Source: Macrostomum lignano | Taxonomy: Eukaryota | Direction of reading: 5' to 3' | Length of the DNA: 64,000 nucleotides | Assembly (NCBI GenBank): GCA_002269645.1 | Contig: NIVC01003698.1 | Span: 1 to 64,000, forward strand | Shown: piece after piece, positions 1 to 63,111 of the stretch | How the letters are laid out: every line of letters begins with the position of its first letter | How positions within the stretch are numbered: position 1 is the first letter of the stretch | Made by a program: the position numbers and the translations under genes | The notes under the pieces: model-generated | What the model was told of the DNA's origin: nothing | Database searches by the model: none | Seen by the model: the letters and a program-made list of their open reading frames with translations, nothing else

Positions 1-961
1 TATTATAGCGTTTTATTCCCAACTGGTGGCACCGCTACACAACCTATCGAGGTTCGTCTAATACAATTATTTGAACACCGAGTTGAAATTCAAGATCTTA
101 ATTGGCCAAATGAAATACTATCTGCTACCCCGCGAGCGTACGTAGATCAGGTAGCAACTCCAACTTCAAATGGTAGAATGTCTGCCGGTGATAAAAATAA
201 ATTGGATAATATTCCCGCGATTGATGCCGCATTATTCGAGCCAGTAATTTGTAATTGGACTGGATATCAAAATCCAACAACCGCTGGAGATATATATCCA
301 GTTGGTTCTTTAATTGGCGACGCTTCTTATATCGATTATCAAAATGGAGCTAGAATTACTCGTGAAACTGGTAGTAAGTGGGGCATTACAATTCAATTTC
401 ACACATTTTCAAAATATATCTGCGTCTTTCTATTTCCGAGTCGCTAATTCTACAGGAGATGGTGCAGATGCGGTTTGGTTTTATGCATATTGTCACGAAC
501 GCCCAACAAGTGAAGTGGGACTGGATTAACAACGACGCCGGATTGATAGTTTTTGCAAGTGAGTGGCATGATAAATTTGGCGTTGTATGGAGTAATAAAA
601 AATCAGACGGATCAAGCCGCGCGGATGTTAATACTGACGCAGATCAAACGGTAGATTATGCAATATTGATAACGGCGATTGGCATTTATTTGAAATTAAT
701 ATTTTAAATCAAAGGGTTTGGTATCAATTAAATTCATACAATGTTTGCGATTCTTATACCCTCATTGGGCAGAACGTTTTCACATATGATAGTGGCACTT
801 GGGGAACTTTGGATAAGACTGGAACCCTTATGGGTTTTGGTGCTCGAACTGGAGGATCGGATGCTGCACATTTTATTCGTGGCGCAGCGTTTGTGGTAGC
901 ACATCGTTTGGTTATGTTTTTCCTCTACTGCTTATTTAGAAAAACCTCCGTACAAATATAA
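1..961 (+). pseudogene. Fibre/receptor-binding-like protein with L-type (ConA/legume) lectin-like C-terminal domain, split by about 3 frameshifts; 5'-truncated by window
   Basis: Frame open from base 1 contains AYVD and ATPTSNGRMSAGDKNKLDNI (phage tail-fibre repeat type). Then, across frames: SASFYFRVANSTGDGADAVWFY, NIDNGDWHLFEINI and GFGARTGGSDAAHFIR, ending at TAA 959-961. Confidence 0.6.
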
Positions 962-976
962 ATATTTCTATATAAA

Positions 977-1401
977 ATGGCTTTTAGTAGAACTCATCGA
1001 TGCGGCAAAATAATGTTATTATTCCTATTCCTAAACAAGAATCAAATATAAAAACATTCAAATCTCATACCAAATTTTTATTTAGTACTGTAAATGTTCA
1101 GGATAATAAGAAGCTTCAAGAATTAATTAAGTTATTAAAAAATCATATTATACTTCAAGAGTTTTGGAAAATAGGATTTAAATGGAGAAAAAAGAAAGAA
1201 TCACTCCAATACAATACCTATTAAGCTCGGGCAAATCCCAAAGAGCGTGGGAATTCATTTTGGTGCTATTAAAAATAGACGAGAATGTCGGTATCTGAAG
1301 CAGATAAATGGGAACGCGACCGGTTCAACCAACGTAAAGGTCACATGTTAAGTAATGTTGATCGAATATACTATGATTATGATTTATATGTAAAAAAGTA
1401 A
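977..1401 (+). pseudogene. Polinton hypothetical gene with several frameshifts
   Basis: TATAAAATG start context at 977, as seen at other element genes. Protein-like segments in successive frames (track ORF 1000-1224; ERITPIQYLLSSGKSQRAWEFILVLL; ...RIYYDYDLYVKK*). Confidence 0.4.
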
Positions 1402-1427
1402 GAAGAGTTTCAAACCATATAAGAAAT

Positions 1428-1939
1428 ATGGACTTTTTCAATATTGGATTTGGAAGCTTATCAATGTTATGTGTAATCGTTTTAGGTATTTTACAATCTA
1501 TTCCAACTCTTAATTTATCTCAATTATTTTTAGGTATTTCAATTGGCTCAATATCAGGTTTTGAATTGATCAGGAACTTATCAATACTTTTAGCAATTAA
1601 ATTATATCTTAAAAAAAGAAAGGAAAAATATAAATCATTAAGAGATGTTGCAAGCAATATAAAAATCAATTATATTTATATGTGCAAAAAATATTGGATG
1701 ACGGAGAGATAACGATTCATGAATTATCAACCGCGGTTGAATTATATGAAAAATATTTAAAAGATAGAAATAGAATTTTAGATGTTGAAACTTTTACCGA
1801 TATGGAATTAAAAGAATTACGTTTGGACAAACCCAAAGCTCCACCTATAGAAACATTAGGTATTTACGAACCCGAAACTATTGCTACTGGGGCACAAAGC
1901 CCACGGTCAGGAAGTGCTGTAGAACTTAATGTTGTTTAA
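1428..1939 (+). pseudogene. Polinton-type membrane protein (hydrophobic N-terminus, basic helix, LDDGEITxxE), frameshift near 1680
   Basis: ORFs 1428-1712 and 1682-1939 overlap and join into the pattern hydrophobic hairpin-KKRKEKY...KILDDGEITIHEL...YEKY, which I recall from Maverick accessory proteins. Confidence 0.55.
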
Positions 1940-2000
1940 TTTATTTAATGCATATGTTATATATTCTTCCCAAAGTGGTAACTCTCTTCTGATTCTAGGT

Positions 2001-2417
2001 TTAAATTTTTATCAATACATAAAATTCCAATGACTTTTTCAATAACATTTCGTTAGGTATGTTACCTATCCTTATAAACTTTGTATTCTCTCGAATAAGA
2101 AAATTGAAATAATATCCAACTAAAATTAAAATCCTTTCAGAGTCTTTCGAACTTAATCCCTTTCCTTTATTTAAATGGAAAAAGTTATTATATAAATAAA
2201 CATTATTTCCGGGAATTAAAATTGGATCAGAAATGTCTCTTGTAAGATTTCTTAAAATTGTGTTTTTAAAATAGTAATATGAGTTTTCAATCTTTTTTGT
2301 TTTTTCAAATTGATATATTTTAGAACATGAATAACACATATGATATATATCTCCGTTTGCTGTTTGCCCTCTGTGCATAGTCACATTACATTTATTACAA
2401 ACATAAATGTCTTTCAT
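2001..2417 (-). CDS. Hypothetical protein with N-terminal zinc ribbon (CxxC...CxxC)
   Basis: 138-aa ORF with CNKC and CYSC; A-rich start context. Confidence 0.6.
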   Translation of the reverse strand: MKDIYVCNKCNVTMHRGQTANGDIYHMCYSCSKIYQFEKTKKIENSYYYFKNTILRNLTRDISDPILIPGNNVYLYNNFFHLNKGKGLSSKDSERILILVGYYFNFLIRENTKFIRIGNIPNEMLLKKSLEFYVLIKI

Positions 2418-2443
2418 TTTTTTGTTATTTTTTTAGATTAAAA

Positions 2444-2773
2444 ATGGAGAGCTGGTTCAAAACCGATTCTAATGTGATTAATTATCTCACACCCAATATG
2501 TTGGAGAATAAAGAATATAATATTGTATGTTTGAGACAGGTTAAATTTATTGGACTTCAATCGATATTTTTACAATTAGATGGGCAAAAAATTTTATGTC
2601 TAAGCGGAGATGATGTTAAAAATTTTCCTGTTTTAGTTATTAATAAACCTAAAGCGTTTGTTATGAAATACAGCAACGAGGGTGGATTGCAATTTAAACT
2701 AAAACAAACAAATAATAAAAAGAGTGATAGGACTGTAAAATTGGCGGCTGTTTGGGAGGATGACCCCGAATAA
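2444..2773 (+). CDS. Hypothetical protein (109 aa)
   Basis: AAAAATG start, element-like codon usage, acidic C-terminal tail. Confidence 0.55.
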   Translation: MESWFKTDSNVINYLTPNMLENKEYNIVCLRQVKFIGLQSIFLQLDGQKILCLSGDDVKNFPVLVINKPKAFVMKYSNEGGLQFKLKQTNNKKSDRTVKLAAVWEDDPE

Positions 2774-2794
2774 GTTTAAATTTTTTATAAGAAA

Positions 2795-3031
2795 ATGGAT
2801 ACGATAAAAATCCTTATCACTAAAGAGCGTGAACTTAATGATATTAATAAAAAAATAAATATAATTATATCTCAGAAATATCATGAGTATGGGGACGATA
2901 TGTTTCCCATCCGATATGAGATAGATAAAAGAAAACGTTTTTTAAGACAAGATATTGTTTATGCTGAAATAGTAATTGAAATTGAAATAGATAGATTGGT
3001 TAGAAAAATAAAAAACTTAGGAAAAAAATAA
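2795..3031 (+). CDS. Hypothetical helical protein (78 aa)
   Basis: GAAAATG start, follows 21 bp after the previous ORF. Confidence 0.5.
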   Translation: MDTIKILITKERELNDINKKINIIISQKYHEYGDDMFPIRYEIDKRKRFLRQDIVYAEIVIEIEIDRLVRKIKNLGKK

Positions 3032-3319
3032 AGGATTGTTTAAGTTACCCTGCCGACTGTGAGGATAATTGGTGCTCAATAATATATGAAATTGAAGTTA
3101 ATGATTTGCTCAAACAATTACATGCTTTAGTTTTTTACAGACCGATAAGTAATTTTTCTGTTAATCTCTTCCAGTTATTCAAGACTTTTTCCTTATTTAA
3201 TTTTTTAAGTTCTTTTGGAAATGTTGAATAATAATTATCTATATCTTTTTCATATTCTAGAAATGTATTATATTCACAATCACATTCGGATTCACAATCA
3301 CAATCGTAATAATAATTAT

Positions 3320-6300
3320 TTATTGCCGCTTGTATTCATTATATTTGCTTATTATATCTTCTTTTTGTTTTTTATCTTTTATCATATTTTTTATCTCTTC
3401 TTTTAAAACATATGGATATGTTTTAATTTTATCATCTAAATACCTTTTATCATCAAATGGACTTAATGTTTTTTTATCTGTCTCGATGACAAACATCTGA
3501 TGCTTATCTGAATTTAATCGATATTGTGGAGCATGATAATTTTCAATTGTATTAAGGTAATCTAAAAGTACGTTTTTATAATCATCAAATGTTATCTTTT
3601 TTACTGCTGCTCTTGATACCCCTTTTATTTTTTTTACCTCTCTCTCCTGTCCTAAAACCTTAAATGCATAGCATTTTGATCTTATTGCTATAAACTCGGT
3701 TATGATTTTGCTATTTAATTCATCTTTCATTTTAAGTACAACTTTTTTATTTTGATCTGATTTTAAAGGATGGTTATCCGGATAGTCGGAGGTATCCAGT
3801 GTATCCTTAATTTTTTCCATATCTTTATAGACATCGAACCTTTGGTTCGCGGACTCCGTCCGGTCATCTGTTTCAACCTTAAATACCAAACTGTCGGTGT
3901 CTGCATATATTGGATAGTTATCTGGCCATGTTTTATTTATAACATCATAATAGTATTCATACATTACTAGCTTTGCAAAATCTAAAACAACCATTCCAAT
4001 AAATATTGGTTTAAGAAATTTTGTTGTTTTATTTCTCATATGAATACCCATAAAGTTATCATCAAATTTTATAAAGTCTTTAAAGTTAGGTTTTGAGAAA
4101 TATTTCTTTGCTTTATCAATATCCTTTTCTAAATGGAATTGGGTTCTATCTCTAATATTTTCAACCGTTTTTCCATAAAAAGCATTATTCATTAATTTCC
4201 AATAATCTTTCTCAAAATTTGTTTTTGACATCTGTCTCTGATTTGAATTAAAATCAATATATTTAGCTAACCAATCTTCCTCAATAAACGATATTGTTCG
4301 ATGTACTTTTGTAACTTTTAATCCCTGTTTTTCATAAAATTGTAGAAGCTTATAATGCACTACATAGTTTTTCTTATCATGTAAATTTAATATTAATTTT
4401 TTTGTTGCTAGATGTTTTGCATTATCTGCTTTAAGATAATCTTTTTGTGTTTGTGATAAATCATCTTCATTAACTGAACAATGCTCTGGAGCTAAAGGAT
4501 ATTTATATGTTTTTGCTTTTGCTTCCCGAGTATATTGCAAATCCACTTCTACGATACAGCCCCTTCCTTCGGGAATATTTTTGTAATAATCGGGGTCATC
4601 TTCCCATTGGAAATCAGCTATTGGTAATTTTTGTTTCATACAACCACCGTATAAATTGTTTGCATCTAGATATAATACATATGATGATTTTTCTTTTTTA
4701 TTATAATTTGGAAGATACTTATTATTTACTTTAGTATATCTATCTCCTAGTACACCCGAGAATCCGCCGCGAATTCCTCTCTCAATCATTAACAACATAT
4801 CATGATCAGTTAGTAAATCAATCTTAACATCTGTATGTTTCAAACCACAAGCCCATGTTAATCCCGGTGCACTGAAACAATATGCGGGATCAATTTTAAA
4901 ATTCTCATATGTATGATTCCTAAAGTTTTCAAATGCATCAGCTAATAGGAGAACATCTGCTTTAAGATATAGATTATGATAATCTTTAAATGTTTTACAA
5001 TTAAAGTATTTCCATACTTTTTGAGCGTGTTCATAATCCGATTCACTTATGTTTGTTTGTGATAATGTTGAATAAAACTTTTCAATTGGGGGTAATTCGG
5101 TATGAGAAAATACCTCTTTAGATGTTACATATTCATATGGGTAGATGCCCTTACGAGTTAATAGCATTAGTTCTTCCTCGGATAGTTTTTCTTTTTTGAA
5201 ACGATTCAATAAGATTGGAAAGTTTTTCTTTACTATTTCTAAATCCCATGGTTTTGGAACTAATGATGAAACAACATTTGCTAAAGATGTTGATAAGAAT
5301 CTCAAGGAATCTAGAAAAACTAGATGGGAGTATTTCTTACCATATGTTATTGATATGTAATTTTCTGATGTTTTAGGTAATATATTTATTTCATATTCAT
5401 CCTTTCCTAAATGAAGCAATTCTCGAACTAAGAAATGAAAATCATATCCGGAACCATTATGAAAAAATACTGGTATTTCCTTACATCCTTTTCCTTCTTT
5501 TGCATTACATGATCTACATGCTGCCCCTCGATAATTTCCTGTTAGATGACAATGTTCTCGTATCTTATTATTCTTACTTAAATGTCTTTTGCACATAAAA
5601 CAATTTGTTGCATTTTTATAATTGTCTCTATCCTTATTTGTCATATTAATATTTTTTGATAATTTATCATATTGATTTTGAATATATTCAAATACATTTA
5701 CTAATGATTCTGCCATGTGCTTAGCTGCATCATTACCGTGGTAAGTAATCATCCTTGATTTAAATATATGATCAGCTACAGAGTGTACATATATACAATA
5801 ACTATTCGGAAACTGTTGTGCCAATTTTTTTGTGCATTCACCGTCATCAGATACCGTCTGTGATTCTTTTAAGGGAACATTTGTTGCTTCAAAATCAGCA
5901 TATATTACTATTGGTTTTTTAACTGCCATATAATGTTGTTGGAACATTAGGGTTGCATCTTCATAATCTGGCATTTTAGCAATAGTAAATTTGTGATCTA
6001 AACAAAATCGTTGATGATTTTTAAGAGCTGTTTCATCCTTTTTAAATGTGAAACAATTTCTACATAGTGGATATCTATTTCTATTTTCTCTTAAAAAGGA
6101 ACTAATGTCCTTTATGTATATATAATGTGTTTCATTTTCGCGCTGCATGTACAAAAGATCGATTTGATCTGGTGCAGTTATATCAGTTGCTGGTTTTACT
6201 AAATAACAGTTTTTCTTATACCATTCTGGATCGACCTGCTGAATTTCTTCTAGATCTTCTGGTTCTTCAATTGTAAAAACATTAATATTTAAACCATTCA

Positions 6301-7081
6301 TTTTTTCAATCTTATATATATCATCTATTGCTACTGGGTATGAGATGTTTTTCATTATTATTTCATCCTCATATTGTCTATAATTATATATTTTATTAAC
6401 ATGTGATTTTACTTGTTTATGATATTTATGAATTAATAAACACCATAATAAACATTTATTATCTCTATTGTCTGGATTTATAATCATTGGTGATTTAAAG
6501 TATAGCTTCATGTGTGATCGTCCTTTAAGAATTTCTATGGGTGCAATCTTTACTGTTGCTGAATTACAGGATACAAATATAAACCCGGATCCGTTTTCTG
6601 TCATCATATCTATCCATTCATCAAACTCAGCTTCTACTTGATTAAATTGATTATTGTAATTTCTCATTGATAGAAGTGTCTTATAAGATTCTTGTGAAAA
6701 GTTATTTATTACTTCAATTTCTGAATTTGCATTAAGTATATTTGGTTTTTTAAATTCTGTTTCAACTTCTATTTTATACTTAATTGGCTGTAGTTTGTTA
6801 TTTGGCCTTATAGTATAATTATTTAATATGGTCTTTAATTTATCTTTCATTTGTTTAAAATATTCTTTATAATTTGTATTTATATCAATATCTATATCTA
6901 TTACTTCTGCCCCATTTTGTCTTTGTGGTTGGTGGTTGTCAATATCATTTAATTGTCTTTCTAAACGTATCTCATTTTCTGCCCTAACTCTAGCTTCTAT
7001 ATTAGCTCTTTCTAATTCCAATTGAGCTATTAATTGTGCTCTAATTTCAGGATTGTCGATTTGAGCTAAAATTGCTTCCAT
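3320..7081 (-). CDS. polB: Protein-primed family B DNA polymerase (Polinton/Maverick type) with inserted C2H2 finger and endonuclease VII-like domain
   Basis: 1253 aa intact. Exo motifs IYADFEA, FHNGSGYDFHF and YLKADVLLL; RKGIYPYEY; polymerase motifs YLDANNLYG, KLMNNAFYGK, YADTDS and KCY; CFMC...EHCHLTGNYRGAACRSCN. Confidence 0.97.
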   Translation of the reverse strand: MEAILAQIDNPEIRAQLIAQLELERANIEARVRAENEIRLERQLNDIDNHQPQRQNGAEVIDIDIDINTNYKEYFKQMKDKLKTILNNYTIRPNNKLQPIKYKIEVETEFKKPNILNANSEIEVINNFSQESYKTLLSMRNYNNQFNQVEAEFDEWIDMMTENGSGFIFVSCNSATVKIAPIEILKGRSHMKLYFKSPMIINPDNRDNKCLLWCLLIHKYHKQVKSHVNKIYNYRQYEDEIIMKNISYPVAIDDIYKIEKMNGLNINVFTIEEPEDLEEIQQVDPEWYKKNCYLVKPATDITAPDQIDLLYMQRENETHYIYIKDISSFLRENRNRYPLCRNCFTFKKDETALKNHQRFCLDHKFTIAKMPDYEDATLMFQQHYMAVKKPIVIYADFEATNVPLKESQTVSDDGECTKKLAQQFPNSYCIYVHSVADHIFKSRMITYHGNDAAKHMAESLVNVFEYIQNQYDKLSKNINMTNKDRDNYKNATNCFMCKRHLSKNNKIREHCHLTGNYRGAACRSCNAKEGKGCKEIPVFFHNGSGYDFHFLVRELLHLGKDEYEINILPKTSENYISITYGKKYSHLVFLDSLRFLSTSLANVVSSLVPKPWDLEIVKKNFPILLNRFKKEKLSEEELMLLTRKGIYPYEYVTSKEVFSHTELPPIEKFYSTLSQTNISESDYEHAQKVWKYFNCKTFKDYHNLYLKADVLLLADAFENFRNHTYENFKIDPAYCFSAPGLTWACGLKHTDVKIDLLTDHDMLLMIERGIRGGFSGVLGDRYTKVNNKYLPNYNKKEKSSYVLYLDANNLYGGCMKQKLPIADFQWEDDPDYYKNIPEGRGCIVEVDLQYTREAKAKTYKYPLAPEHCSVNEDDLSQTQKDYLKADNAKHLATKKLILNLHDKKNYVVHYKLLQFYEKQGLKVTKVHRTISFIEEDWLAKYIDFNSNQRQMSKTNFEKDYWKLMNNAFYGKTVENIRDRTQFHLEKDIDKAKKYFSKPNFKDFIKFDDNFMGIHMRNKTTKFLKPIFIGMVVLDFAKLVMYEYYYDVINKTWPDNYPIYADTDSLVFKVETDDRTESANQRFDVYKDMEKIKDTLDTSDYPDNHPLKSDQNKKVVLKMKDELNSKIITEFIAIRSKCYAFKVLGQEREVKKIKGVSRAAVKKITFDDYKNVLLDYLNTIENYHAPQYRLNSDKHQMFVIETDKKTLSPFDDKRYLDDKIKTYPYVLKEEIKNMIKDKKQKEDIISKYNEYKRQ

Positions 7082-7165
7082 TTTATAGAATATAATTTAT
7101 ATAGTATTTGAATTATTGATTTTTTAATTTGCGTTTTTGGTGTCCAGACCCACCCCCCCAGGAGC

Positions 7166-8140
7166 CTATTCGAGATCTGCTTTTGGTAATAGCAATCCAT
7201 TGCCCATAACGTTTGAATTTAAGAAAATTCCTGAACCTGCTTTTGGTCTCATTTCGAGATATAATCCGCTTCCGTCGTGTTTTTCAATGATGTTAAAATC
7301 TTTTCCTAACTTAGTAAAAATCTTCTGAACTGCTGGCCTAAAATTAACCCCAATATTGTCAAAAAATCCTTTAGCTTTCTCACCCGTTTTTTCTAAAGTT
7401 TGACCAAATTCCTGTAGTTTATCTGCTACAACTCCACTTCCTTGGGTTGTTCCTTTTAGTACCAAACCGCTGCCATTTAACAGTAAACCTTTTCCAGCTG
7501 CTAACCTAGCTTCTGCATTTCTTTTTTGCTCTGCTGTTGCTGAACTACTATTAATGGTGTCAATAAGTTTCTGTTTGAATTGTGCGTCCTGTGTTATTTG
7601 CTGTCTTTGAAATTCAGCATCTCGTTTAGCTTTTTCATCCGCAGCTTTTTTATCATTTACTGCTTTTGTGATTCCAGCTGCGCCCCCTGCTATTCCACCA
7701 GCTGCTCCAATTCCTGCAAAAATTATTGGTAATAAAGTTGCTAATGGCAATATTCCTCCTTGTTTTGCCTTTAATTCTGCTAACTGTTTTCGGTTATCAT
7801 GAATTCTTTTACCTGCTAAACCGGCTGCTCCAGCTGCTCCGAGGCCTAAAAGAATTGGTAAAATAGGTAACAACCCACCATCCTTTTTAGTGTGAGTCTC
7901 CAATAAAAATTTTACATCGGAGTCTGTCAACCTATAATTTCTGCCGCGATTCTTAAAGGATATTGGCCTTCCTTCTTGTGCATATTTTGCTGCGAGTTTA
8001 AATGTATCGATGTCGTAGTCAAACTTTTTACCTAATCGATCCAATCTTTTTAACATTGTGTGGCTATGTTTATTATCATCCAAATCTAAAGTGTCTACAA
8101 TTTCTCCTATAAAATATAAGCGGTCGTTATCTGTGTCCAT
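7166..8140 (-). CDS. Adenovirus pX-like virion protein precursor with two GG-LLP hydrophobic segments
   Basis: KDGG-LLPILPILLGLGAAG and KQGG-ILPLATLLPIIFAGIGAAGG resemble adenoviral pX (GGFLPALIPIIAAAIGA); six xGxG-hydrophobic motifs in the C-terminal third. Confidence 0.7.
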   Translation of the reverse strand: MDTDNDRLYFIGEIVDTLDLDDNKHSHTMLKRLDRLGKKFDYDIDTFKLAAKYAQEGRPISFKNRGRNYRLTDSDVKFLLETHTKKDGGLLPILPILLGLGAAGAAGLAGKRIHDNRKQLAELKAKQGGILPLATLLPIIFAGIGAAGGIAGGAAGITKAVNDKKAADEKAKRDAEFQRQQITQDAQFKQKLIDTINSSSATAEQKRNAEARLAAGKGLLLNGSGLVLKGTTQGSGVVADKLQEFGQTLEKTGEKAKGFFDNIGVNFRPAVQKIFTKLGKDFNIIEKHDGSGLYLEMRPKAGSGIFLNSNVMGNGLLLPKADLE

Positions 8141-8150
8141 TTTTATATTG

Positions 8151-8548
8151 TTAAAATTTTTTTAATCCTTTTCCGCCTTTAATTGTGGTTAACATTTTAT
8201 TAAAATCCTGAATATCTTTATTACTTATTGGCGTGGTTTTCGTGGGGGTTTCTGTTGGTTGTGCGGCTTGTGCCAGCTTTAAATCTTTTATTGCATTTAT
8301 TTGTGAGAGGGTGTCGTTAAAATCTCTCAATTTCTTTAGTTCTTCTGCCGCTCTAGCTGCTTCAATTCCTCCTTTTACAGCATTTGTTATAGAACCTGCT
8401 GCAGAGCCGCTTGCCCTATAAGCCCCATATTGTCTTTAACGAAATTTGCTGCTGTTCCAACCACATCAAAAAGCCCCTCACCTCGGTATTCAACTGGGTC
8501 TCCTACCTGCAATTCATTCAGATTTTGCATATGTGTAACGTGTGTCAT
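8151..8548 (-). pseudogene. pVI-like amphipathic (membrane-lytic candidate) virion protein, 1-nt frameshift near 8415
   Basis: MTHV...RGEG-LFDVVGTAANFVKDNMGLIG, then after adding one G to the GGG run: ASGSAAGSITNAVKGGIEAARAAEEL...KGGKGLKKF*. The span is 398 nt, which is 133 codons minus 1 base. Confidence 0.6.
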
Positions 8549-8589
8549 TTTTTGTTCTATTTTTAGTAACAGAAAAAAGATTGTCTGCA

Positions 8590-8683
8590 TTCCATTTGGA
8601 CCGGATTTTGGACCAAATTTTTGAAAACGAAAACCAAAACGATAGTCTAGTTTTGTTTGGTCTAAAATCTGGTCTAAATGGAA
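8590..8683. repeat. Imperfect 28-bp inverted repeat in element subterminal region
   Basis: TTCCATTTGGACCGGATTTTGGACCAAA (8590-8617) versus the reverse complement of 8656-8683, TTCCATTTAGACCAGATTTTAGACCAAA. Confidence 0.9.
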
Positions 8684-8770
8684 TGTTGGGTGGGTAGGTG
8701 AGCTGACTATAAATAGCTTCTATTCTTTCCGACCCTTCGCGCCTGCGGCGCGGGCAAGGGGTTATAGAGT

Positions 8771-9039
8771 AGTAGTATAGAAAAAGACGCTTCTAGATCA
8801 GACCTTATTTTAATGACCGTTTGTAAGGTCTTAAGAGGGGGGACGCGAGGGGAGTGTTGGGGAGTGTTTTGGAAGTGTTGGGAAGTGATTTTTATTGTTA
8901 GGGGTGATTATGGGTGATTAGATGTATTAATGGTGTTTAGATGTGTTTTTTTATTTACCCCCCGTGTCCCCCCTCTAGACCCTTAAAACGGTCATTAAAA
9001 AAGTGCTCTGGGTCTAGAAGCGTCTATTTCTATACTACT
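8771..9039. repeat. About 80-bp imperfect inverted repeat forming the element terminus
   Basis: AGTAGTATAGAAAAAGACGCTTCTAGA...GAGGGGGGACGCG at 8771-8852 mirrors 8958-9039. Confidence 0.9.
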
Positions 9040-9756
9040 GTGGCCATAGACTAATGATGTGTGTGTGACAGTGTGGCCATAGACTAATGTTGTGTGCGAC
9101 AGTATTGAAACATTCCCCATTTGTCATATAATGTGTGGTACAATTGGGACTTTAATCGCGGTCAATATTCAATATTCTACATTGCCTTTAGTCTCATAGT
9201 GCCGGACTCATTATTTTACTAGGCCATTTTGGCACTTTTTGCTCAACGTATCATTTGCGAAACTTCTGATTCTGATTTTATCCCAGATTTAATCCCAAAT
9301 ACTAAAACAGACTTTCTTCGTATCCTTGCAATCAAGCAGAAATTTTGCTATATTTTACCATTTTTTATTCCGTGCAATCTTCCTGATTCAATGGAACCTG
9401 ATTTTAGCTTTTAATTCCTTAGTATTCATTTTATGATTGTATTTTAAATATACGCGAAGCACTCTATAACAAAATAGAATTAAAACTGCAATTATTGTGT
9501 AACATTTTTTTCTAACAGTGGAAATCAGCCTGTTGCCGCTGTATTGTATTTAAATAACAAACTGTCTAAAGTACAAAGCAGATAAAAAATAAAAGTACAC
9601 AAGATACTTTGAAGACGCGCAATGAAACAGGATTATACATTTAGAACCGGTCAGTAAGTACGAAGTTACTACTAGGGTGAGCTAAAAAGTCAAGGATGCC
9701 TAAATTTCTAAACCAGATACTAAAATTCAGATATCCTTAGCTCAAAAGCCGCCCGA

Positions 9757-10232
9757 GTCAAGGACTACTCAAGCAGTAGGACGTGGGACTAGCGAGACTA
9801 CATTTCTTGGAAAAATTTTAGGAGGGTTTTATCGAAAAAATGCATTACGGAGATAGGAGGTCTTCATTCTTTCAAAACAAAAATTGCTATTGCTTTTGAT
9901 AGCAGGCATGCAGACCCAATGTTCATCTTTTGATATGACTCGCCCTTCTTACAGCTCTATTGATATTCATAGAGCTTTTCATTTAGAAAATTAGGATTCT
10001 ATGTTAATTCCTATGCCTAAAAATCCCGAAAATCAGAAAATCACGGTTTTATGCATCTATTTTATCATTCTGTTGCGCATTGTTTACTCAGTCCACTAAG
10101 TCAGCTAACAGTTTCTGTGCTAAAAAACGAAAAACTCCATTCTCCGCAATGGATTTTTTCGGTAAAAACCTGCCTCCTAGGATCTTCTAAGAAACAAAGT
10201 TTCCCGGCATACTACTTAAGTAGTCCTTGGCC
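9757..10232. repeat. Diverged inverted repeat (old MITE-like remnant)
   Basis: 9757-9885 aligns by eye to the reverse complement of about 10110-10232 (CAAGGACTACTnAAGnAGTA; TTTCTT.GAA...TAGGAGG; CGAAAAAAT.CATT.CGGAGA). Confidence 0.5.
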
Positions 10233-10293: not shown

Positions 10294-13200
10294 CTATAAG
10301 TAGCCAACAAAGCGCTGGCCGAGTGGTGCTGCTGCCGCTGCTGTGTGCGGCGGCTGCGGCGGATGCGGCGGCGCCGGCTGCGGTGGTGGCGGTGGCGGAG
10401 GCGGCATTCGGCAGTGCGGTGGCGGCCCGGCCAGCAGCAGGTCGCGCACCAGCCGGCCGGCCTCCAGCGGCGTGGGCGCCGGCGGCGGCGGGGCCAACGC
10501 CAGCGACTGCAGCCGGAGCAGCAGACGGCCGAAGCGGTCGCAGCAGCCGCCGGCGGCATCGGGCGCCGAGACAGGCAGCCGCAGGCGGCAGTACTCGGCC
10601 AGGGCCCATTGGACGCGCGACTGTCCGGCCTCGACTCGGCCGGGCTCGCGCAGGCCCGGACAGTCCGGGTTCAGCAGCGCCAGCGCCTTCAAGCAGGCCA
10701 GCTCGGCAACGTCTGCGTGCAGCTGGCCGAGCCGGAGGGCGGCCGCGGCGGCGGGGCAGCCGATGGTCGGGCGGCGGGCGTCCGGCGGCTCCTCTGCGGC
10801 CGACTGCAATGCGAACAGTTTTGGCGGCGGAGATAATGCCCTGAGCATATTAGGTAGTTAAATGACCTTCAGCTGTGCACATTGTAACAACTCGTGACAA
10901 CAGCAACAGCAGCAACAACAAAACACGCCGTCGGGGTGTTTAGAAGGCAGCGTCACATGGCGCGCTACGGATACCCTTCGACTCACAACCTGCCCTGACC
11001 CACAAGCCATGATTAACCCACCTGCTGTAGCTGGGTGAGCACAAGCAGCTGGCCCCAGCTGGCCTGCAGCAGGCTGAGCTGGTCAGCCTGGCCCAGCTCG
11101 GCAAAGAACGGCGCCCGCCTCGCCCATTCAACAGCGGCGGCCAGCAGTTCGCGGGCCCAGTCTCCGGTGCAGCAGGCGACGCCGAGCTGCGGGCACGTCG
11201 TCAATGGCGACGGCGGCAGCGGCCTCGGACGGTGATCCGAACGGACGAGGCCGGACAGAAGGCCGGACAGGCAGGCGCTGAGCTGCTGCTGGCGCTGAGG
11301 CGACGGGCCGCCTTGGTACCAGGGACTGCCCGACGAGTAGGGCGACACCTGCCAGGATTGGTCAGCGAGGGCTGGGAGGGCTTAAAATGCACGCCTTCGG
11401 CGACATCGACTCACAACTCCTAGCAAGCGCACTCACACTCATACAGGCTGTACAGCAGTCCTTTGACTTTCTAATCGTCAGGCTTGCACACTCTATTCCT
11501 TGGGGTTGGCCGTCATGGCTGAGTCGCACGACAAACCCCAAACGAATTTTGCTGCGCACGGAATCGAACGAGGGGAGACGCGGCGCGAGATTCAGCCGCG
11601 TTTTACCGCCGAGCTGCTCTGCTTTAGCTGGGGCAGCTCAGATTTTCAGTGGGATGATTTGTCAGGTGGGATCTTGGACGGGGTCTTGATGGGATCCTTG
11701 GGTGGGATCTTGGATGGGATCTTAGATGGGATCTTGAATGGGATCCTGAATGATATCTTGGACGGAATCTTGGATAGAATCTTGGGTGGGATCTTGGGTG
11801 GGATCTTGGATGGGATCCTTGGGTGGGATCTTGGATGGGATTTTGAATGGGATCTTTGGGTGGGATCCTTGGGTGGGATCTTGGATGATATCTTGGATGG
11901 GATCCTTGGGTGGGATCTTGGATGATATCTTGGATGGGATCCTTGGGTGGGATCTTGGATGGGATCTTGGGTGGGATCTTGGATGGGATCCTTGGGTGGG
12001 ATCTTGAATGGGATCCTTGGGTGGGATCCTTGGGTGGGATCTTGGATGGGATCTTGAATGGGATCCTTGGGTGGGATCCTTGGGTGGGATCCTTGGGTGG
12101 GATCTTTGGTTGGGATCTTTGGGTGGGATTTTGAATGGATCCAGTAATTCCCATAAATCTTATTGAATTCATTTAATCTCATTTATCCCACGGATTTTAT
12201 ACATGATAAAAATCCCATAAATACCATAAACCCCATAAATCCCATAAATCCCATAAATCCCATAAATCCCATAAACCTATGAGTTCCGCAATTGCGTACT
12301 CACCGACGCAGGCGGCAGCTGGAAGCCGGTCAGGCCCCGAACCGGCGACGACATGCCGTCCCGGCCGGCGCCCCCGCGGCCGCGCTGCACTGCCTCGCGC
12401 CGCATGCCGAGCGCCAGGCACTTGTCGAAACGGCACCGCTGGCATTGGTTCCTGTGCTGCGTGTCCACCGGGCACGGCGTCCCGCCTCCGCTGCCGCCGC
12501 CGCCGCGGCAGCTGTAGACGAGGTTGCGGCGGACGGATCGCTTGAAAAACGATTTGCAGCCCTCGCATGAGAATTGGCCATAGTGCTTGCCTGCGGTTCG
12601 TGCGGTGGCGTGGTGGCGAGATCGGGTTCAGTGTGGTTTGCGGTACGGAAATAAAAAAGGCCTGTCTTTGGGTTGAGTTCTGAGTAGGGTCTGAGACTGG
12701 GAGATTTGAGTAGAGTCTGAGACTGGCAGATTTGAGTAGAGTCTGAGACTGGCAGATTTGAGTAGGGTCTGAGACTGGGAGATTTGAGTAGGGTCTGAGA
12801 CTGGCAGATTTGAGTAGGGTCTTAGACTGGGAGATTTGAGTAGGGTCTGAGACTGGCAAATTTGAGTAGGGTCTGAGACTGGCAGATTTGAGTAGGGTCT
12901 GAGACTGGGAGATTTGAGTAGGGTCTTAGACTGGCAGATTTGAGTAGAGTCTTAGACTGGGGGATTTGAGTAGGGTCTTAGACTGGGAGATTTGAGTAGA
13001 GTCTGAGACTGGGAGATTTGAGTAGAGTCTGGGAGACTGGGAGATTTGAGTAGGGTCTGAGACTGGGAGATTTGAGTAGGGTCTTAGACTGGGGGATTTG
13101 AGTAGGGTCTGAGACTGGCAGATTTGAGTAGAGTCTGAGACTGGCAGATTTGAGTAGGGTCTGAGACTGGGAGATTTGAGTAGGGTCTGAGACTGGCAGA

Positions 13201-23938: not shown

Positions 23939-26900
23939 CCGTTCGCTCTGCAGCTGCAGCAGGACTCCGTCGGGGCGATTGCGCAGCCGGCAGCCGACCA
24001 CGCCGCCGCCTGATGCCAGGCTGTCGGCGGCTGTAAAGAATAGTCACAAAAAGTGGCCATAGCGCTCAGTTAGATCTTTTAAATTGGGATATTTCCCATT
24101 CATTATTCTCCCAACCTAAAATTAGGATTATTCACATTCTCATCATCCCCCAGTCTCACCTGCCCGCCGCACCACCCTGTCCCGGATGCAGCGGCAGACC
24201 CGGCGGCCCCGGCGGCACCGAAGGACCAGCGGCGCGGCCGCTTCCTCATCGGTGAGCAGCGTCAGCCGCCGCTCCGCCGGATCGAAGGTGACGCTGGCCA
24301 GCGAGTCGAACCAGACTCGACGGAGGGCGGCGCCACTCCGGCAGCGCAGTGCCAGGCAGCTGTCAGCCACCTCCACGTAGCGGGCCTCGCACAACCGGCT
24401 CAAGAAGCTGCTGCCGTCGTCGCAGTCGCCGCCGCCGCCTACGGCGGCCTCCGCAGTCGGCGACGAAATCAGGCGAGCGTCGAAGGCTGGCCGACGGGGC
24501 AGGCGGCTCAGCGGGGCGCGCAGGCGAACGGAGTTGCTGCCAGCCGCGGCTGCGGGCAGCTCGTCAAGCAGGCGCCCGAGTTTCCGGCTGTGGTGCAGCC
24601 CGACGTGACTGCGGGCCAGCAGGCGGCGAATTCGGCGGGGCAGCTCGGCGCGATCGACGGCCATGGCCAGCATGAAGGCGGCGGTGTTGTGCAGCGCCCG
24701 GCCCAGCAGCCGGTCCTCGTACAGCTCCTGCCTGCGGCGGCGCCTGCGGATTCAGAGGTTACAGCGAGAGATTCACGGCTAGCGAAGTTTAGAGAAAATT
24801 TATCAGTCACTCGTGCAGTCTTTCCGTTTGCAGGGTGTTTTGGTGCCTTGGGGGTTGGCCCTCATGGGTGTGAATCGTTCAATCATTGGGGGGGGGATTG
24901 TCGTGCGATGTACACCTATGAAGGCCTGATGCGAGTGCGTGCCTGTGTACAGTATTGGCGCTTGCACGTGCTCACGAGTCAGCTGAATCGGCAGAACTGC
25001 CGTCAGCGCTGCTTGCGGGGCAAAGCCGCCCAAGGCGTTGCGCCAGGGTTGCCCAGCGGCCCTCCTGAATTTCATTATTACTAAGAAGCCTGACCTGTCC
25101 TTCGATCCGCAGTCGAGACCGAGCACCTCCCGCTCGTTGGCCACCCAGTCGAGGAACAGGTCCTCCCAGAAGTCGGCGCTGTCCCACAGCGCTGAGCGGT
25201 CCTTATTGATCAGCCGCTCGTACAAGAAGCCGCCGCCGCCGCCGCCGCGGCTGCCTCTGAGAGCCGACGCGCCCGACAAAGACGATGAAGCGTTAGAAGC
25301 TGAGGGACCGACACCGCCTCGTCCACCTCTGCCGACGCTGCGACTTGCGTTGCTGCCGCCGCCGCCGCCGCCGCCACTTGCCATCTTGTGCGAGAGCATC
25401 TCCCTCATCTGGTCTGGGCTTCTGTGCTGCTGTTTCTTCTGCACCTCGATGTTCTCGTACTCTTCTCCGTTGAGCACCACAGATGAGCCGGAGACTGACG
25501 GGATTTGGGGTTCAATAAAAGTTGAGACCGTTTAAACAATGGGCTATTGTTGCAGCGATAGTGCAGTGAGAGATTGTAGATACCATTGCGTCTTATTGAC
25601 AGATTATACTTATTCACTTCAGAAATTATAGCCACGATTGTAAACTCGACAGTTGGGTACTGTGTAACTGCCAAACTAAGGAACAAGTTAAAGTAAGGAA
25701 TCACAATGTCTGTTTCTGGCAGTGGGAGCACCAGGTGAGGCATTGGGATCGCCAGGTGAGGCATTGGGAGCGCCAGGTGAGAAAGTGGGAGCGCCAGGTG
25801 AGAAAGTGGGAGCGCCAGGTGAGAAAGTGGAAGCGCCAGGTGAGACTGTGGTGCCGGAGAGCTGAGCTCTAGGCACTGACTAACTAACTAACTTATGCTA
25901 TGTACGTGCATCGTTCGTGCACACCATTCTTTCCTCTCCCTTCGCTCTGACTGGCCATAGCCCTAAGCTTCCATGTACTTGTACGTAGTTTATTGTCATC
26001 ACGTGACTCTATTTTGGGTGTTCTCTCAGCCCCTGCTCGTGTCATTATTAAATAGGCTACTTGCTAGTTAAAATAAACCTCAAGTATCTTTACGCCAACT
26101 ACACGGCACGACAGAGACAGTGGGAGCACCAGGTGAGACAGTGGGAGCACCAGGTGAGACAGTGGGAGCACCAGGTGAGGCTGTGGGAGCACCAGGTGAG
26201 GCAGTGGGAGCACCAGGTGAGGCTGTGGGAGCACCAGGTGAGACAGTGGGAGCACCAGGTGAGACAGTGGGAGCACCAGGTGAGGCTGTGGGAGCACCAG
26301 GTGAGGCAGTGGGAGCACCAGGTGAGGCTGTGGGAGCACCAGGTGAGGCAGTGGGAGGACCAGGTGAGGCAGTGGAATCGCCAGGTGAGGCATTGGGATC
26401 GCCAGGTGAGAAAGTGGGATCGCCAGGTGAGGCAGGGGGATCGCCAGGTGAGGCAGGGGGATCGGCAGGTGAGAAAGTGGGATTGCCAGGTGAGGCAGTG
26501 GGATCGCCAGGTGAGGCTGTGGGAGCACCAGGTGAGGCAGTGGGAGGACCAGGTGAGACAGTGGGAGCACCAGGTGAGGCAGTGGGAGGACCAGGTGAGG
26601 CAGTGGAATCGCCAGGTGAGGCATTGGGATCGCCAGGTGAGAAAGTGGGATCGCCAGGTGAGGCAGGGGGATCGCCAGGTGAGGCAGGGGGATCGGCAGG
26701 TGAGAAAGTGGGATTGCCAGGTGAGGCAGTGGGATCGCCAGGTGAGGCAGTGGGATCGCCAGGTGAGGCAGTGGGATTGCCAGGTGAGGCAGTGGGATTG
26801 CCAGGTGAGGCAGTGGGATTGCCAGGTGAGGCAGTGGGATTGCCAGGTGAGGCAGTGGAATCACCTGTTGAGGCAGCGGGGTTGCCAGGTGGGACAGTTT

Positions 26901-45841: not shown

Positions 45842-51610
<5,769 letters not shown>

Positions 51611-58825: not shown

Positions 58826-58974
58826 TGTCTGGACAACTGCTGAAAGAGCAAGCATGGGATGCTCACTTCTGTACTTTCATTTTCACTTTTGCTCACTACA
58901 CAGATATTGTTATAATTCTATTTGATAGTTACTTTTGTTCCTAATTATTTAGCACCGTCTCTGTGAATTGCATG

Positions 58975-59934
58975 ATGCCGCTTCCGCCACCCCCGCCGCC
59001 TCCTCCGCCTCCGCCGCCGTCATCGTCTGGGCCTCCGGCCCCGCCTGCGGCAGGCAAGAAGGCCACAGGCAATCGCGGCGCCCTGCTAGGCGACATCCGT
59101 AGCGGCGCCCGGCTGCGCAAAGTGCCCGACAGCCAGAAGCGGGACAGAAGCGAGGCCCAACTGGGCGGCAGCAAGTCCGCCCCGCCACTCTGCAGCTCCA
59201 GCAACAACCGCCGAACGTCGGTCTCGTCAGCTTCTACTGACACTTCCAGCGGCGGCTCTGGTGGCTCCACAGGCGGCGCCGGCGTCGGGGTCCCCATAGG
59301 CGGCGGCAGCGTCGGTTCGCTGTTCCAGCAGGAGTTGGCCAACAAGTTTGCCAGCAGGGCCTCTAACGGCGCTCTGCCGGCGCAGAACGGCGCCAGACTG
59401 TCGTCCACCAAGCTGCCGCCCCCGCCGCCGCCGACGTCGCAACCAACGCAGGCGCAGAGACAGCAGGCGCCGATGCGTCCAGCTGACCGCGGCGCCGCGC
59501 CGCCTCCGCCGCCGCAGAGCAAGAAGCCCGCATTGAGTCCGGCTAAATCGCAGCAGCCATCCCGACCGCCGCCACCTCCGCCGCCGCCGTCGCAGCACTC
59601 CAGCCGACGCTCAGCGCCCGAGCCGCCAGCCGTGCCCGCCCGCAGCCGCCCGGTCAGCACCGGCGGCGGATATGCGCCGCCTCCGCCCCCGACCCCTGCG
59701 TCCTCGGCGCCATCCCGGCAGCCGCCGCCTCCGCCGCCTCCGTCTCGGCCACCAACTGGTCGCTCGGTCACGGCGCCTGCGCCGCCTAAATCGCGCTCGT
59801 CCGCCCCACCTGCGCTGGCCGACTTCGAGACCCGGTTCAAGTTCAGGCCGCCCAGCTCGCTGCCGCCGCCGAAGAAGTTCACCGGTACTGAGAAGTTCAA
59901 AGCCAGCGTGCCGCTGCCCCGGCACAGTCACTGA
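58975..59934 (+). CDS. WIPF: WASP-interacting protein / verprolin family (single coding exon)
   Basis: MPLPPPP start; WH2 motif RGALLGDIRSGARLRKV...DRS; polyproline body; C-terminal WASP-binding motif DFETRFKFRPPSSLPPP. An alternative ATG lies at 58972. Confidence 0.9.
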   Translation: MPLPPPPPPPPPPPPSSSGPPAPPAAGKKATGNRGALLGDIRSGARLRKVPDSQKRDRSEAQLGGSKSAPPLCSSSNNRRTSVSSASTDTSSGGSGGSTGGAGVGVPIGGGSVGSLFQQELANKFASRASNGALPAQNGARLSSTKLPPPPPPTSQPTQAQRQQAPMRPADRGAAPPPPPQSKKPALSPAKSQQPSRPPPPPPPPSQHSSRRSAPEPPAVPARSRPVSTGGGYAPPPPPTPASSAPSRQPPPPPPPSRPPTGRSVTAPAPPKSRSSAPPALADFETRFKFRPPSSLPPPKKFTGTEKFKASVPLPRHSH

Positions 59935-61573: not shown

Positions 61574-62515
61574 TCACTTGACGGGCCGGATGGCGTCCAA
61601 CACGGCGCAGATGTCGCCCTCCTTGGCCAGCAGCAGCCGGGTCAGCCAGCCTCCGTCATCGCTGAAGCCCATGGCCTGCATGTGCTCCAGCGCTCGAGCC
61701 ACTCGCGGGTCCGGCGTCTCCCCGCTGTTGTCATGGCAACCGGCGGCAACGGCCGCGGCCTCCTCCGGCCGCTCGTCAGTCGCCATCGCCTCGGCGGAGG
61801 TGGCGGCGGGCGGAGGCGGAGCGGCCTGCTGGGAGGTGGCAGCGGTGGCGGCTCCTTCAAAGGCGGCGGACGGAGGCGGCGGTGGCGGAGCGGCCTGCTG
61901 GGAGGTGGCAGCGGTGTCGGCTCCTTCGAAGTCCGCGGCGGCGGCTCCTTCGAAGTCGGCGGCGGCGGCTGCAGCGGCCTCGGCAGCCTTGGCGAAGAAG
62001 TCGCGGAACCGCGGGCCGCCCCATCGTCCCCGGCCGCAGGGACCGCGGCGGAAGCAGCGAGCTGCCGGGAGGTCGTCAGGCCGCCTGATGAGGAGCATGG
62101 GATGCTGGCTGTGGCTGCCGCCTGTCATGCAGGCCGAGCAGAGGTCAAAGTCGGGGCACAGGAGGCACTTGAACCGCTGGCCCGTCACGCCGGACTCGCA
62201 GCCATCGCACACGACGCCCTCGTGGACGACCGTCGGGTCGCCGACGCTGACGAAGACTTTGACAGCGTCGCCGGAGCCGCCGTCCCGTCTGGCGGCGAGG
62301 CTGCGGATGGCCTCCTGCAGCTCGGCATTGGTTGTCATGGTGACCCTGTCACCCTCCTCATCCTGCCAGCGGAGCCGCAGCTGCTGCGTTGGCGCGATGG
62401 AGAAGACGGCCTGCAGCTGCTCCACCAGGCTGGCGTAGGTGGCTTGGCCCGCAAGGCTGAGGCGCCGGATCTCGTTGCCATAGTAACACTTAAATGGTAC
62501 GACCGATGAGGCCAT
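61574..62515 (-). CDS. SQSTM1: Sequestosome-1/p62 (Ref(2)P)-like autophagy receptor: PB1-ZZ-UBA, intronless
   Basis: PB1 (KCYYGNEIRR...WQDEEGDRVTM), ZZ (HEGVVCDGC...RFKCLLCPDFDLCSAC...HSQH), UBA (ALEHMQAMGFSDDGGWLTRLL...GDICAVLDAI). Confidence 0.95.
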   Translation of the reverse strand: MASSVVPFKCYYGNEIRRLSLAGQATYASLVEQLQAVFSIAPTQQLRLRWQDEEGDRVTMTTNAELQEAIRSLAARRDGGSGDAVKVFVSVGDPTVVHEGVVCDGCESGVTGQRFKCLLCPDFDLCSACMTGGSHSQHPMLLIRRPDDLPAARCFRRGPCGRGRWGGPRFRDFFAKAAEAAAAAAADFEGAAAADFEGADTAATSQQAAPPPPPPSAAFEGAATAATSQQAAPPPPAATSAEAMATDERPEEAAAVAAGCHDNSGETPDPRVARALEHMQAMGFSDDGGWLTRLLLAKEGDICAVLDAIRPVK

Positions 62516-63111
62516 GTTGCAGCTGATTAGCTTGTCTGGTTTGAAGCTGGGGACTCTTGGATGCCTTCTCAAAGTCTCAGCTGAGGCTGAAGTGAGCTGA
62601 CTTGTCTGCGGCTTTTGCTGCGGCTTTTTATGCTGCTGGCCGGGCCGCCACGATTTCGCTGCGCATCGGCTACGAATTGCAGCGTCGGCGCTACGTTTTG
62701 CCCGGGCTTTCCTATTGGGGATTCCCTGATGCTATTTTTAGACATTGCGTGCGGCCTGGGTATAGGGAGACGGAAACGTAGTGTGGACGTATTGTTCTGA
62801 AGTGTACAGCTTTTAAGGGACTGTTAATTGTAGTTTTTTCGAGTTCTGTTATTGACATCTCATACGTTGTTTCGACGTATTCTTACTGTCAGTTTTACCC
62901 GGCCTTTGTTACTTCTTAGTGAGAAAGAAAGAACAGAGTTAGAGTATCTACATCTTTGGCAATATGAGTATATGTATTATTTATTTGTATTATTGAAACG
63001 GTGTAATTTTTCAGGCGTTAATTGCTCTATTTAGTCTATAATTAGGAAGCAATTGATTTTCCTAATGAGCTTAAATCTCTTACGAGCTATAGACAAAATT
63101 GTCTCTCTGCC

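Follow-up and report, generated by a model that had tools for sequence, protein, structure and literature searches.

A frameshifted gene at the left edge of a Polinton-type element

The DNA analysed here, referred to as the window, is a stretch of 64,000 nucleotides of contig NIVC01003698.1 of Macrostomum lignano, in which an AT-rich stretch (1-9040) carries the genes of a Polinton-type element, followed past the element end by nuclear receptor exons and other animal genes. The forward strand opens with one gene, covering positions 1 to about 930, that is interrupted by at least four frame breaks, located at 366-374, 520-525, about 662, and 886-898. Three-frame translation and alignment with P0002, an unbroken homologue, revealed that the reading frame follows the order 1, 2, 3, 2, 1 across the gene. 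Frame 1 holds an N-terminal part (1-123), the motif ATPRAYVD (124-147), which we take to be a phage-fibre-like 'AT..YVD' motif and which has a similar counterpart ahead of the head in P0003, the segment GRMSAGDKNKLD (172-207) following AYVD, and RIT (352-360). Frame 2 holds GADAVWFY (461-484), NIDNGDWH (662-685), GFGARTGG (833-856), and HFIRG (869-883), and frame 3 holds SEWHD (558-572). After the fourth break, the frame-2 translation of about 890-961 is probably no longer in the coding register. The motifs quoted in the original prediction were all present, in the frames and the order it had given; of the breaks it had placed near 390, 520, and 660, the second and the third were recovered, the first was shifted to 366-374, and the fourth had been missed. 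Since frame 1 is free of stops from base 1 and has no methionine before residue 60, the start of the gene should lie to the left of the window. Contigs of all four sequencing runs compared extend past an end of the compared stretch, and the listed pieces starting at base 1 carry additional sequence.

With the last fragment of the gene as query, a single protein was retrieved, P0001 (191 amino acids, 61% identity, E 1e-31), which spans the frame-2, frame-3, and frame-2 segments without interruption. A HMMER search with P0001 among 1.84 billion representatives returned 25 hits, the sole other close one being P0002 (332 amino acids, 65% identity, E 2e-69). P0002 matched the window in seven collinear ungapped pieces (sum E 3e-86) and an N-terminal piece (E 3e-11), with identities of 43-78%, well above what chance would give. 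Residues 1-56 of P0002 correspond to positions 46-213 (frame 1, 43% identity), residues 59-129 to 154-366 (frame 1), 133-181 to 374-520 (frame 2), 184-228 to 525-662 (frame 3), 229-310 to 662-886 (frame 2), and 315-323 to 898-924 (frame 1). A profile built from the prokaryote and phage rows alone matched frames 1, 2, 3 (weakly, E 0.002), and 2 in profile order. The fragments had originally been proposed to form one protein rather than separate genes, and they are indeed contiguous in P0002, a single protein.

A phage-type shaft motif precedes the head

The shaft motif GxMSxxDKxKLD (172-207, identified by translation and PHROG comparison) occurs once in the window and twice, in tandem, in P0002. 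The window copy matched PHROG 6907 at E 2.5e-5, and tail-fibre PHROGs weakly (E 0.1). Among 11 scanned motif-bearing proteins, drawn from 20 loci matched through the motif region, seven matched tail or virion PHROGs (E<=1e-4) and four matched families of unknown function alone; in the protein of locus L045, the tail-fibre matches overlie the motif itself. The phage-type motif claimed for this gene is present, and phage tail or virion proteins share it.

Within the 25 head-bearing hits, the motif was found in three (P0002, P0006, and P0010), each time directly before a C-terminal head. P0006 is sister to a 276-amino acid gene on L022 (IMGVR_UViG_3300046092_000062), a 320-kb phage-like contig of IMG/VR, and P0010 comes from a metagenome-assembled genome of Candidatus Deianiraeaceae and has an N-terminal DUF2793/tail-fibre-like part. 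We take the Deianiraeaceae to belong to the Rickettsiales. The 276-amino acid protein, P0006, and P0010 share with the window gene the shaft motif, the junction, and the C-terminal head; aligned with P0002 over 272-291 residues, they are 30-32% identical to it. Unlike the window gene, they lie in a prokaryotic context. In the region 8756-10744 of L022, the shaft-plus-lectin gene follows a head-decoration/virion-structural gene (E 5e-52), with an endolysin gene nearby, and the fibre of this phage may belong to the capsid rather than to the tail.

The head is predicted to have an L-type lectin fold

The predicted head occupies positions 232-924 across frames 1, 2, 3, 2, and 1, as delimited by the P0002 alignment, the prokaryote/phage profile, and the P0002 model. 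Predicted structure comparison of P0002 residues 85-321 returned ERGIC-53, VIP36, and legume lectins, and the model has the ConA-type beta-sandwich. The L-type lectin-like head that had been read from motif order is thus predicted as a fold in the unbroken homologue. In P0001, P0002, P0006, and P0010, no more than about 45 residues follow the head. The head shares 8-17% identity with L-type lectins (ERGIC-53, VIP36, legume, and the archaeal 7EXO and 7ELV), and unlike these the visible part of the window gene has no signal peptide or membrane anchor. A ConA-type fold would also suit a glycan-cleaving enzyme, such as a tailspike-like depolymerase, but this is very unlikely, given that the L-type lectins that lead the structural comparison have no catalytic function and score 5-7 Z units above the enzymes, and that 9 of the 17 family members match Lectin_L-type_dom.

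Two elements of a lectin site were recognised. The Ala-Asp of the first sugar-binding loop (Asp121 in ERGIC-53) is present as GAD at 461-469, which aligns with GADG of 7ELV, Asp being kept in 16 of the 17 rows. The Gly-Gly loop that follows the last sheet strand (Gly251-Gly252 in ERGIC-53, whose role is described in PMC3912170) is present as GARTGG at 839-856 and aligns with the TGG loop of 7ELV. In addition, invariant Asp, Glu, Glu, Arg, and His columns are common to the window gene and the prokaryote/phage family. The same identity of putative site residues would be expected of a virion fibre directed at a microbial glycan, by which particles would attach to bacteria or algae and reach the animal through its food, a route similar to the hitchhiking on bacteria proposed for the virophage DSLV2 in the part of that report covered (PMC12724248). 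As the prokaryotic surface lectins of the head family may equally bind eukaryotic glycans, a microbial target is considered distinctly improbable.

The head belongs to a prokaryotic lectin-fold family that has an invariant GARTG/His signature and for which Pfam has no separate model; it includes giant proteins of Patescibacteria, pilin-like proteins of Hadarchaeota, and a phage protein. Relatives of the head match PF18483 only below the cut-off.

Origin of the stalk-plus-head unit

Beyond P0001 and P0002, the hits are 30-41% identical, and those with names are prokaryotic (Patescibacteria, archaea, Deianiraeaceae, and others). In the phylogenetic tree, P0001 and P0002 group together (100/100) on a long branch, which stands in an open fork with a phage pair, a Deianiraeaceae group, and a Patescibacteria-rich group; the donor and the direction of transfer are not resolved by this topology. 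The simplest reading is a lineage-restricted capture of the gene, because the element's polymerase has thousands of relatives and the head has two close ones. The source of the stalk-head unit was probably a phage or a bacterium.

This distribution also bears on whether the gene might be captured non-virion cargo, that is, a lectin-fold protein acting in or on the cell, with the stalk motif left over from the phage or bacterium that supplied it. Among the relatives are many cellular proteins of Patescibacteria and archaea, few Polintons have the gene (two close hits vs 2249 for the polymerase), and no structural module is visible beside it. Against this, the shaft motif has been kept, with a copy number that varies (one in the window, two in P0002), and the stalk-head junction is conserved with a phage protein that adjoins a virion gene, so that cargo is regarded as unlikely, although it is the strongest of the alternatives.

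Frame breaks and selection among copies

Contigs from four runs of one organism contain diverged copies that cover all 30 bins of positions 1-2000 in every run. One contig piece is identical to window positions 1-264, and another (853-995) joins the end of the gene to the next open reading frame (ORF). Length differences between the contigs and the window occur at 50 sites; the 12 rows listed lie at three of the four breaks and at seven sites in downstream ORFs. Around the one other break the copies diverge, with loose ends near 514. Both the 3.8-kb polymerase ORF and the 1-kb pX-like ORF of the element are unbroken in the window. These data fit a misassembly close to the left edge as well as decay of the window copy, and the contigs do not discriminate between them.

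The codon-position test was based on the 40 best-supported of 198 substitution rows, 27 of which fall within 35-826. In the head, 13 of 15 substitutions hit the third position of a codon when the inferred frames were applied (binomial p 3e-5), as compared to 3, 9, or 3 with any single fixed frame; in the N-terminal part, third positions accounted for 5 of 12. This pattern supports the inferred frames and suggests that the head is under purifying selection. Because other copies show these signs of selection on the head, the breaks are somewhat more probably errors of the assembled copy than family-wide loss of the gene.

The element and its genomic surroundings

The protein-primed DNA polymerase B gene (pPolB; 3320-7096, reverse strand) is intact, with 1,258 codons, an endonuclease VII insert (PF02945), and the motifs DANNLYG, KLMNNAFYG, and YADTDS. 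When its C-terminal half was used as query, 2249 of the 8000 candidates scored reached E<=1e-50, some with PF03175; the few named relatives are from Mytilus, Oculina, and Araneus. A 331-codon ORF (7166-8161, reverse strand) contains an adenovirus pX-like segment (Adeno_PX, E 1.4e-4, below the curated cut-off) and led in Atlas to Preplasmiviricota clusters (scores 0.88-0.89); its product is likely a virion core protein. A pX-like segment is a feature of virion genes of adintoviruses in the part of PMC8502044 covered.

A palindrome of about 270 bp (AGTAGT...ACTACT, 8768-9039, no strand assigned), with ACTACT at 9034-9039, is likely the right end of the element, the only one of its two ends within the window; such ACTACT/AGT-type termini are presumably the Polinton end motif. 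The palindrome is predicted to form a DNA stem of about 85 bp (-62 kcal/mol, z -13.5), no 6-bp duplication was found at its borders, and it may represent a mini-element or a hairpin that serves as replication origin. Another short palindrome occupies 8588-8685. The original assignment to a Polinton-type element in an animal genome is borne out by the polymerase, the pX-like gene, the putative end motif, and the animal flanking genes. The term virus rests here on the first three, as integrase, capsid, ATPase, and protease were not found among the ORFs scanned.

Contamination or a chimeric join of microbial DNA would make the gene foreign to the animal Polinton. The named head relatives are all prokaryotic, GC content is 40% in 1-930 vs 28% in 977-3300, and the host junction near 9040 is known from the assembly alone. 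Nevertheless, the pX-like gene has a GC content similar to that of 1-930, 20 runs of one organism from eight studies hold 57-67% of the sequence words of 1-9000, and the diverged copies and the 853-995 piece described above carry the gene in all four runs and into the next ORF. Such a foreign origin is consequently judged highly improbable.

Between the gene and the polymerase, an ORF at 977-1400 (forward strand) is apparently split over frames; the contigs of other copies also vary in length there, and no informative Pfam match was obtained. At 1383-1939 (forward strand), two overlapping frames, broken near 1650, combine a hydrophobic two-helix N-terminal part with a C-terminal part containing 'ILDDGEITIHEL'. 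We assume a resemblance to SLATT/GasderminX-type Polinton genes, for which the Pfam scan gave no support. Several short AT-rich ORFs at 2381-3335 (forward strand) converge on the polymerase; one of them contains a repeat rich in Cys, Asp, and Glu (3272-3306). An inverted repeat resembling a miniature inverted-repeat transposable element (9759-10229; arms 9759-9790/10198-10229 and 9823-9872/10122-10171) separates the element from the first host gene. Host exons encode a nuclear-receptor ligand-binding domain (10297-11381, reverse strand), a MADD death domain (24146-24751, reverse), a LIM-interaction domain (49687-50571, forward), WH2 (58945-59931, forward), and part of a PB1-ZZ-UBA (p62-like) gene (61577-62731, reverse), and they are interspersed with many tandem arrays.

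A candidate attachment fibre

The reading favoured here, with slightly better than even confidence, is that the product of the frameshifted gene of this multi-copy Polinton-type element is an attachment fibre of the virion, with a host glycan as its ligand. A short phage-type stalk would carry the C-terminal head, and this head, with its predicted L-type lectin fold, would attach to a sugar on the cell surface. The N-terminus, beyond the window, may anchor the protein on a capsid vertex, and the stalk motif may trimerise. The invariant Asp, Glu, Glu, Arg, and His together with the Gly-Gly loop could form a non-canonical sugar site, the whole stalk-plus-head unit having been captured from a phage or a bacterium. 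An extracellular infectious stage would follow from this reading.

Several results weigh against the attachment fibre. No capsid, penton, ATPase, protease, or integrase was detected among the 14 scanned ORFs of an element that is cut by the left edge of the window, and P0001 and P0002 are known as proteins alone. The shaft motif is missing from 22 of the 25 head hits (one of them the N-truncated P0001), mostly large cellular surface-type proteins, and residues 1-63 of the P0002 model have pLDDT values below 50, so a shaft fold is not established. The Pfam comparison originally proposed gave no hit to a lectin or any other family for the window fragments, P0001, or P0002. The canonical metal-binding loop of L-type lectins (Asn156 in ERGIC-53, with Glu/Asp/His ligands) is not kept: the corresponding loop of the window head is short, lacks this set, and reads SEWHD, with Asp for the expected Asn in 14 of 17 rows and Ser for the expected Asp in 11 of 17. 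This mapping is a probable one, based on the order of the strands and the canonical motif, and the other register given by HMMER also lacks the ligand set. The substitutions analysed are a limited subset, and they show a head conserved among copies, while receptor-binding tips often diversify.

Comparable fibres have been described outside animals. In the parts of the reports covered, the phage-like fibres of protist Polinton-like viruses include domains of the ConA-like Laminin_G_3, H-lectin, and discoidin types (PMC12220804), and Gezel-14T particles contain the phage-like fibre protein Ltf, which joins phage tail repeats to a C-terminal H-lectin (10.1101/2022.07.28.501842). Like these, the window gene combines a phage-type stalk motif with a putative carbohydrate-binding domain; unlike them, often longer than 1000 amino acids and equipped with a Peptidase_S74 chaperone, it belongs to an element of an animal host and has a C-terminal L-type-lectin-like head with no chaperone after it. 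The element itself resembles animal Polintons and adintoviruses in its pPolB and pX-like gene, and probably in its terminal motif. In the parts of PMC8502044 covered, which include the supplementary maps only partly, a 'Fiber' label stands on the map of one insect-associated adintovirus (Supplementary Fig. S2), 'Fiber' and 'Lectin' labels are given for MELD viruses, 'Lectin' occurs in the main text only in the figure legend on these MELD viruses, for galactose-binding-type domains, and a shaft plus L-type head is not described. Tail-fibre-like genes of oomycete Polintons and fusogens of nematode Polintons appear in the covered part of 10.1101/2023.08.22.554363, and the words 'fiber' and 'lectin' are absent from the main text of PMC11131425 and 10.64898/2026.10.13.758929. 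In a literature search that missed most subscription papers, a fibre that joins such a shaft to an L-type lectin was not found reported for any animal Polinton. The novelty originally suggested accordingly holds for that unit in animals and not for phage-like fibres with ConA-like or lectin domains, already published for protist viruses, nor for the fibre label as such, given the one adintovirus map.

A fuller scenario, to which we give a little less than even credence, is that an animal Polinton lineage captured a complete phage/Rickettsiales-type tip, whose head has been kept by purifying selection across copies and is used on virions for a sugar receptor. Whether animal Polintons form infectious particles, and how these would recognise cells, is the issue addressed by this gene, whose compact, foldable head would turn the question of cell recognition into a binding assay. 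The finding also points to a prokaryotic lectin-fold family with no Pfam name, and to the transfer of a host-recognition module from a phage or bacterium to an animal virus. If the fuller scenario is true, an animal Polinton would have a receptor-binding protein that can be named and assayed, and an infectious stage passing from cell to cell would be directly evidenced.
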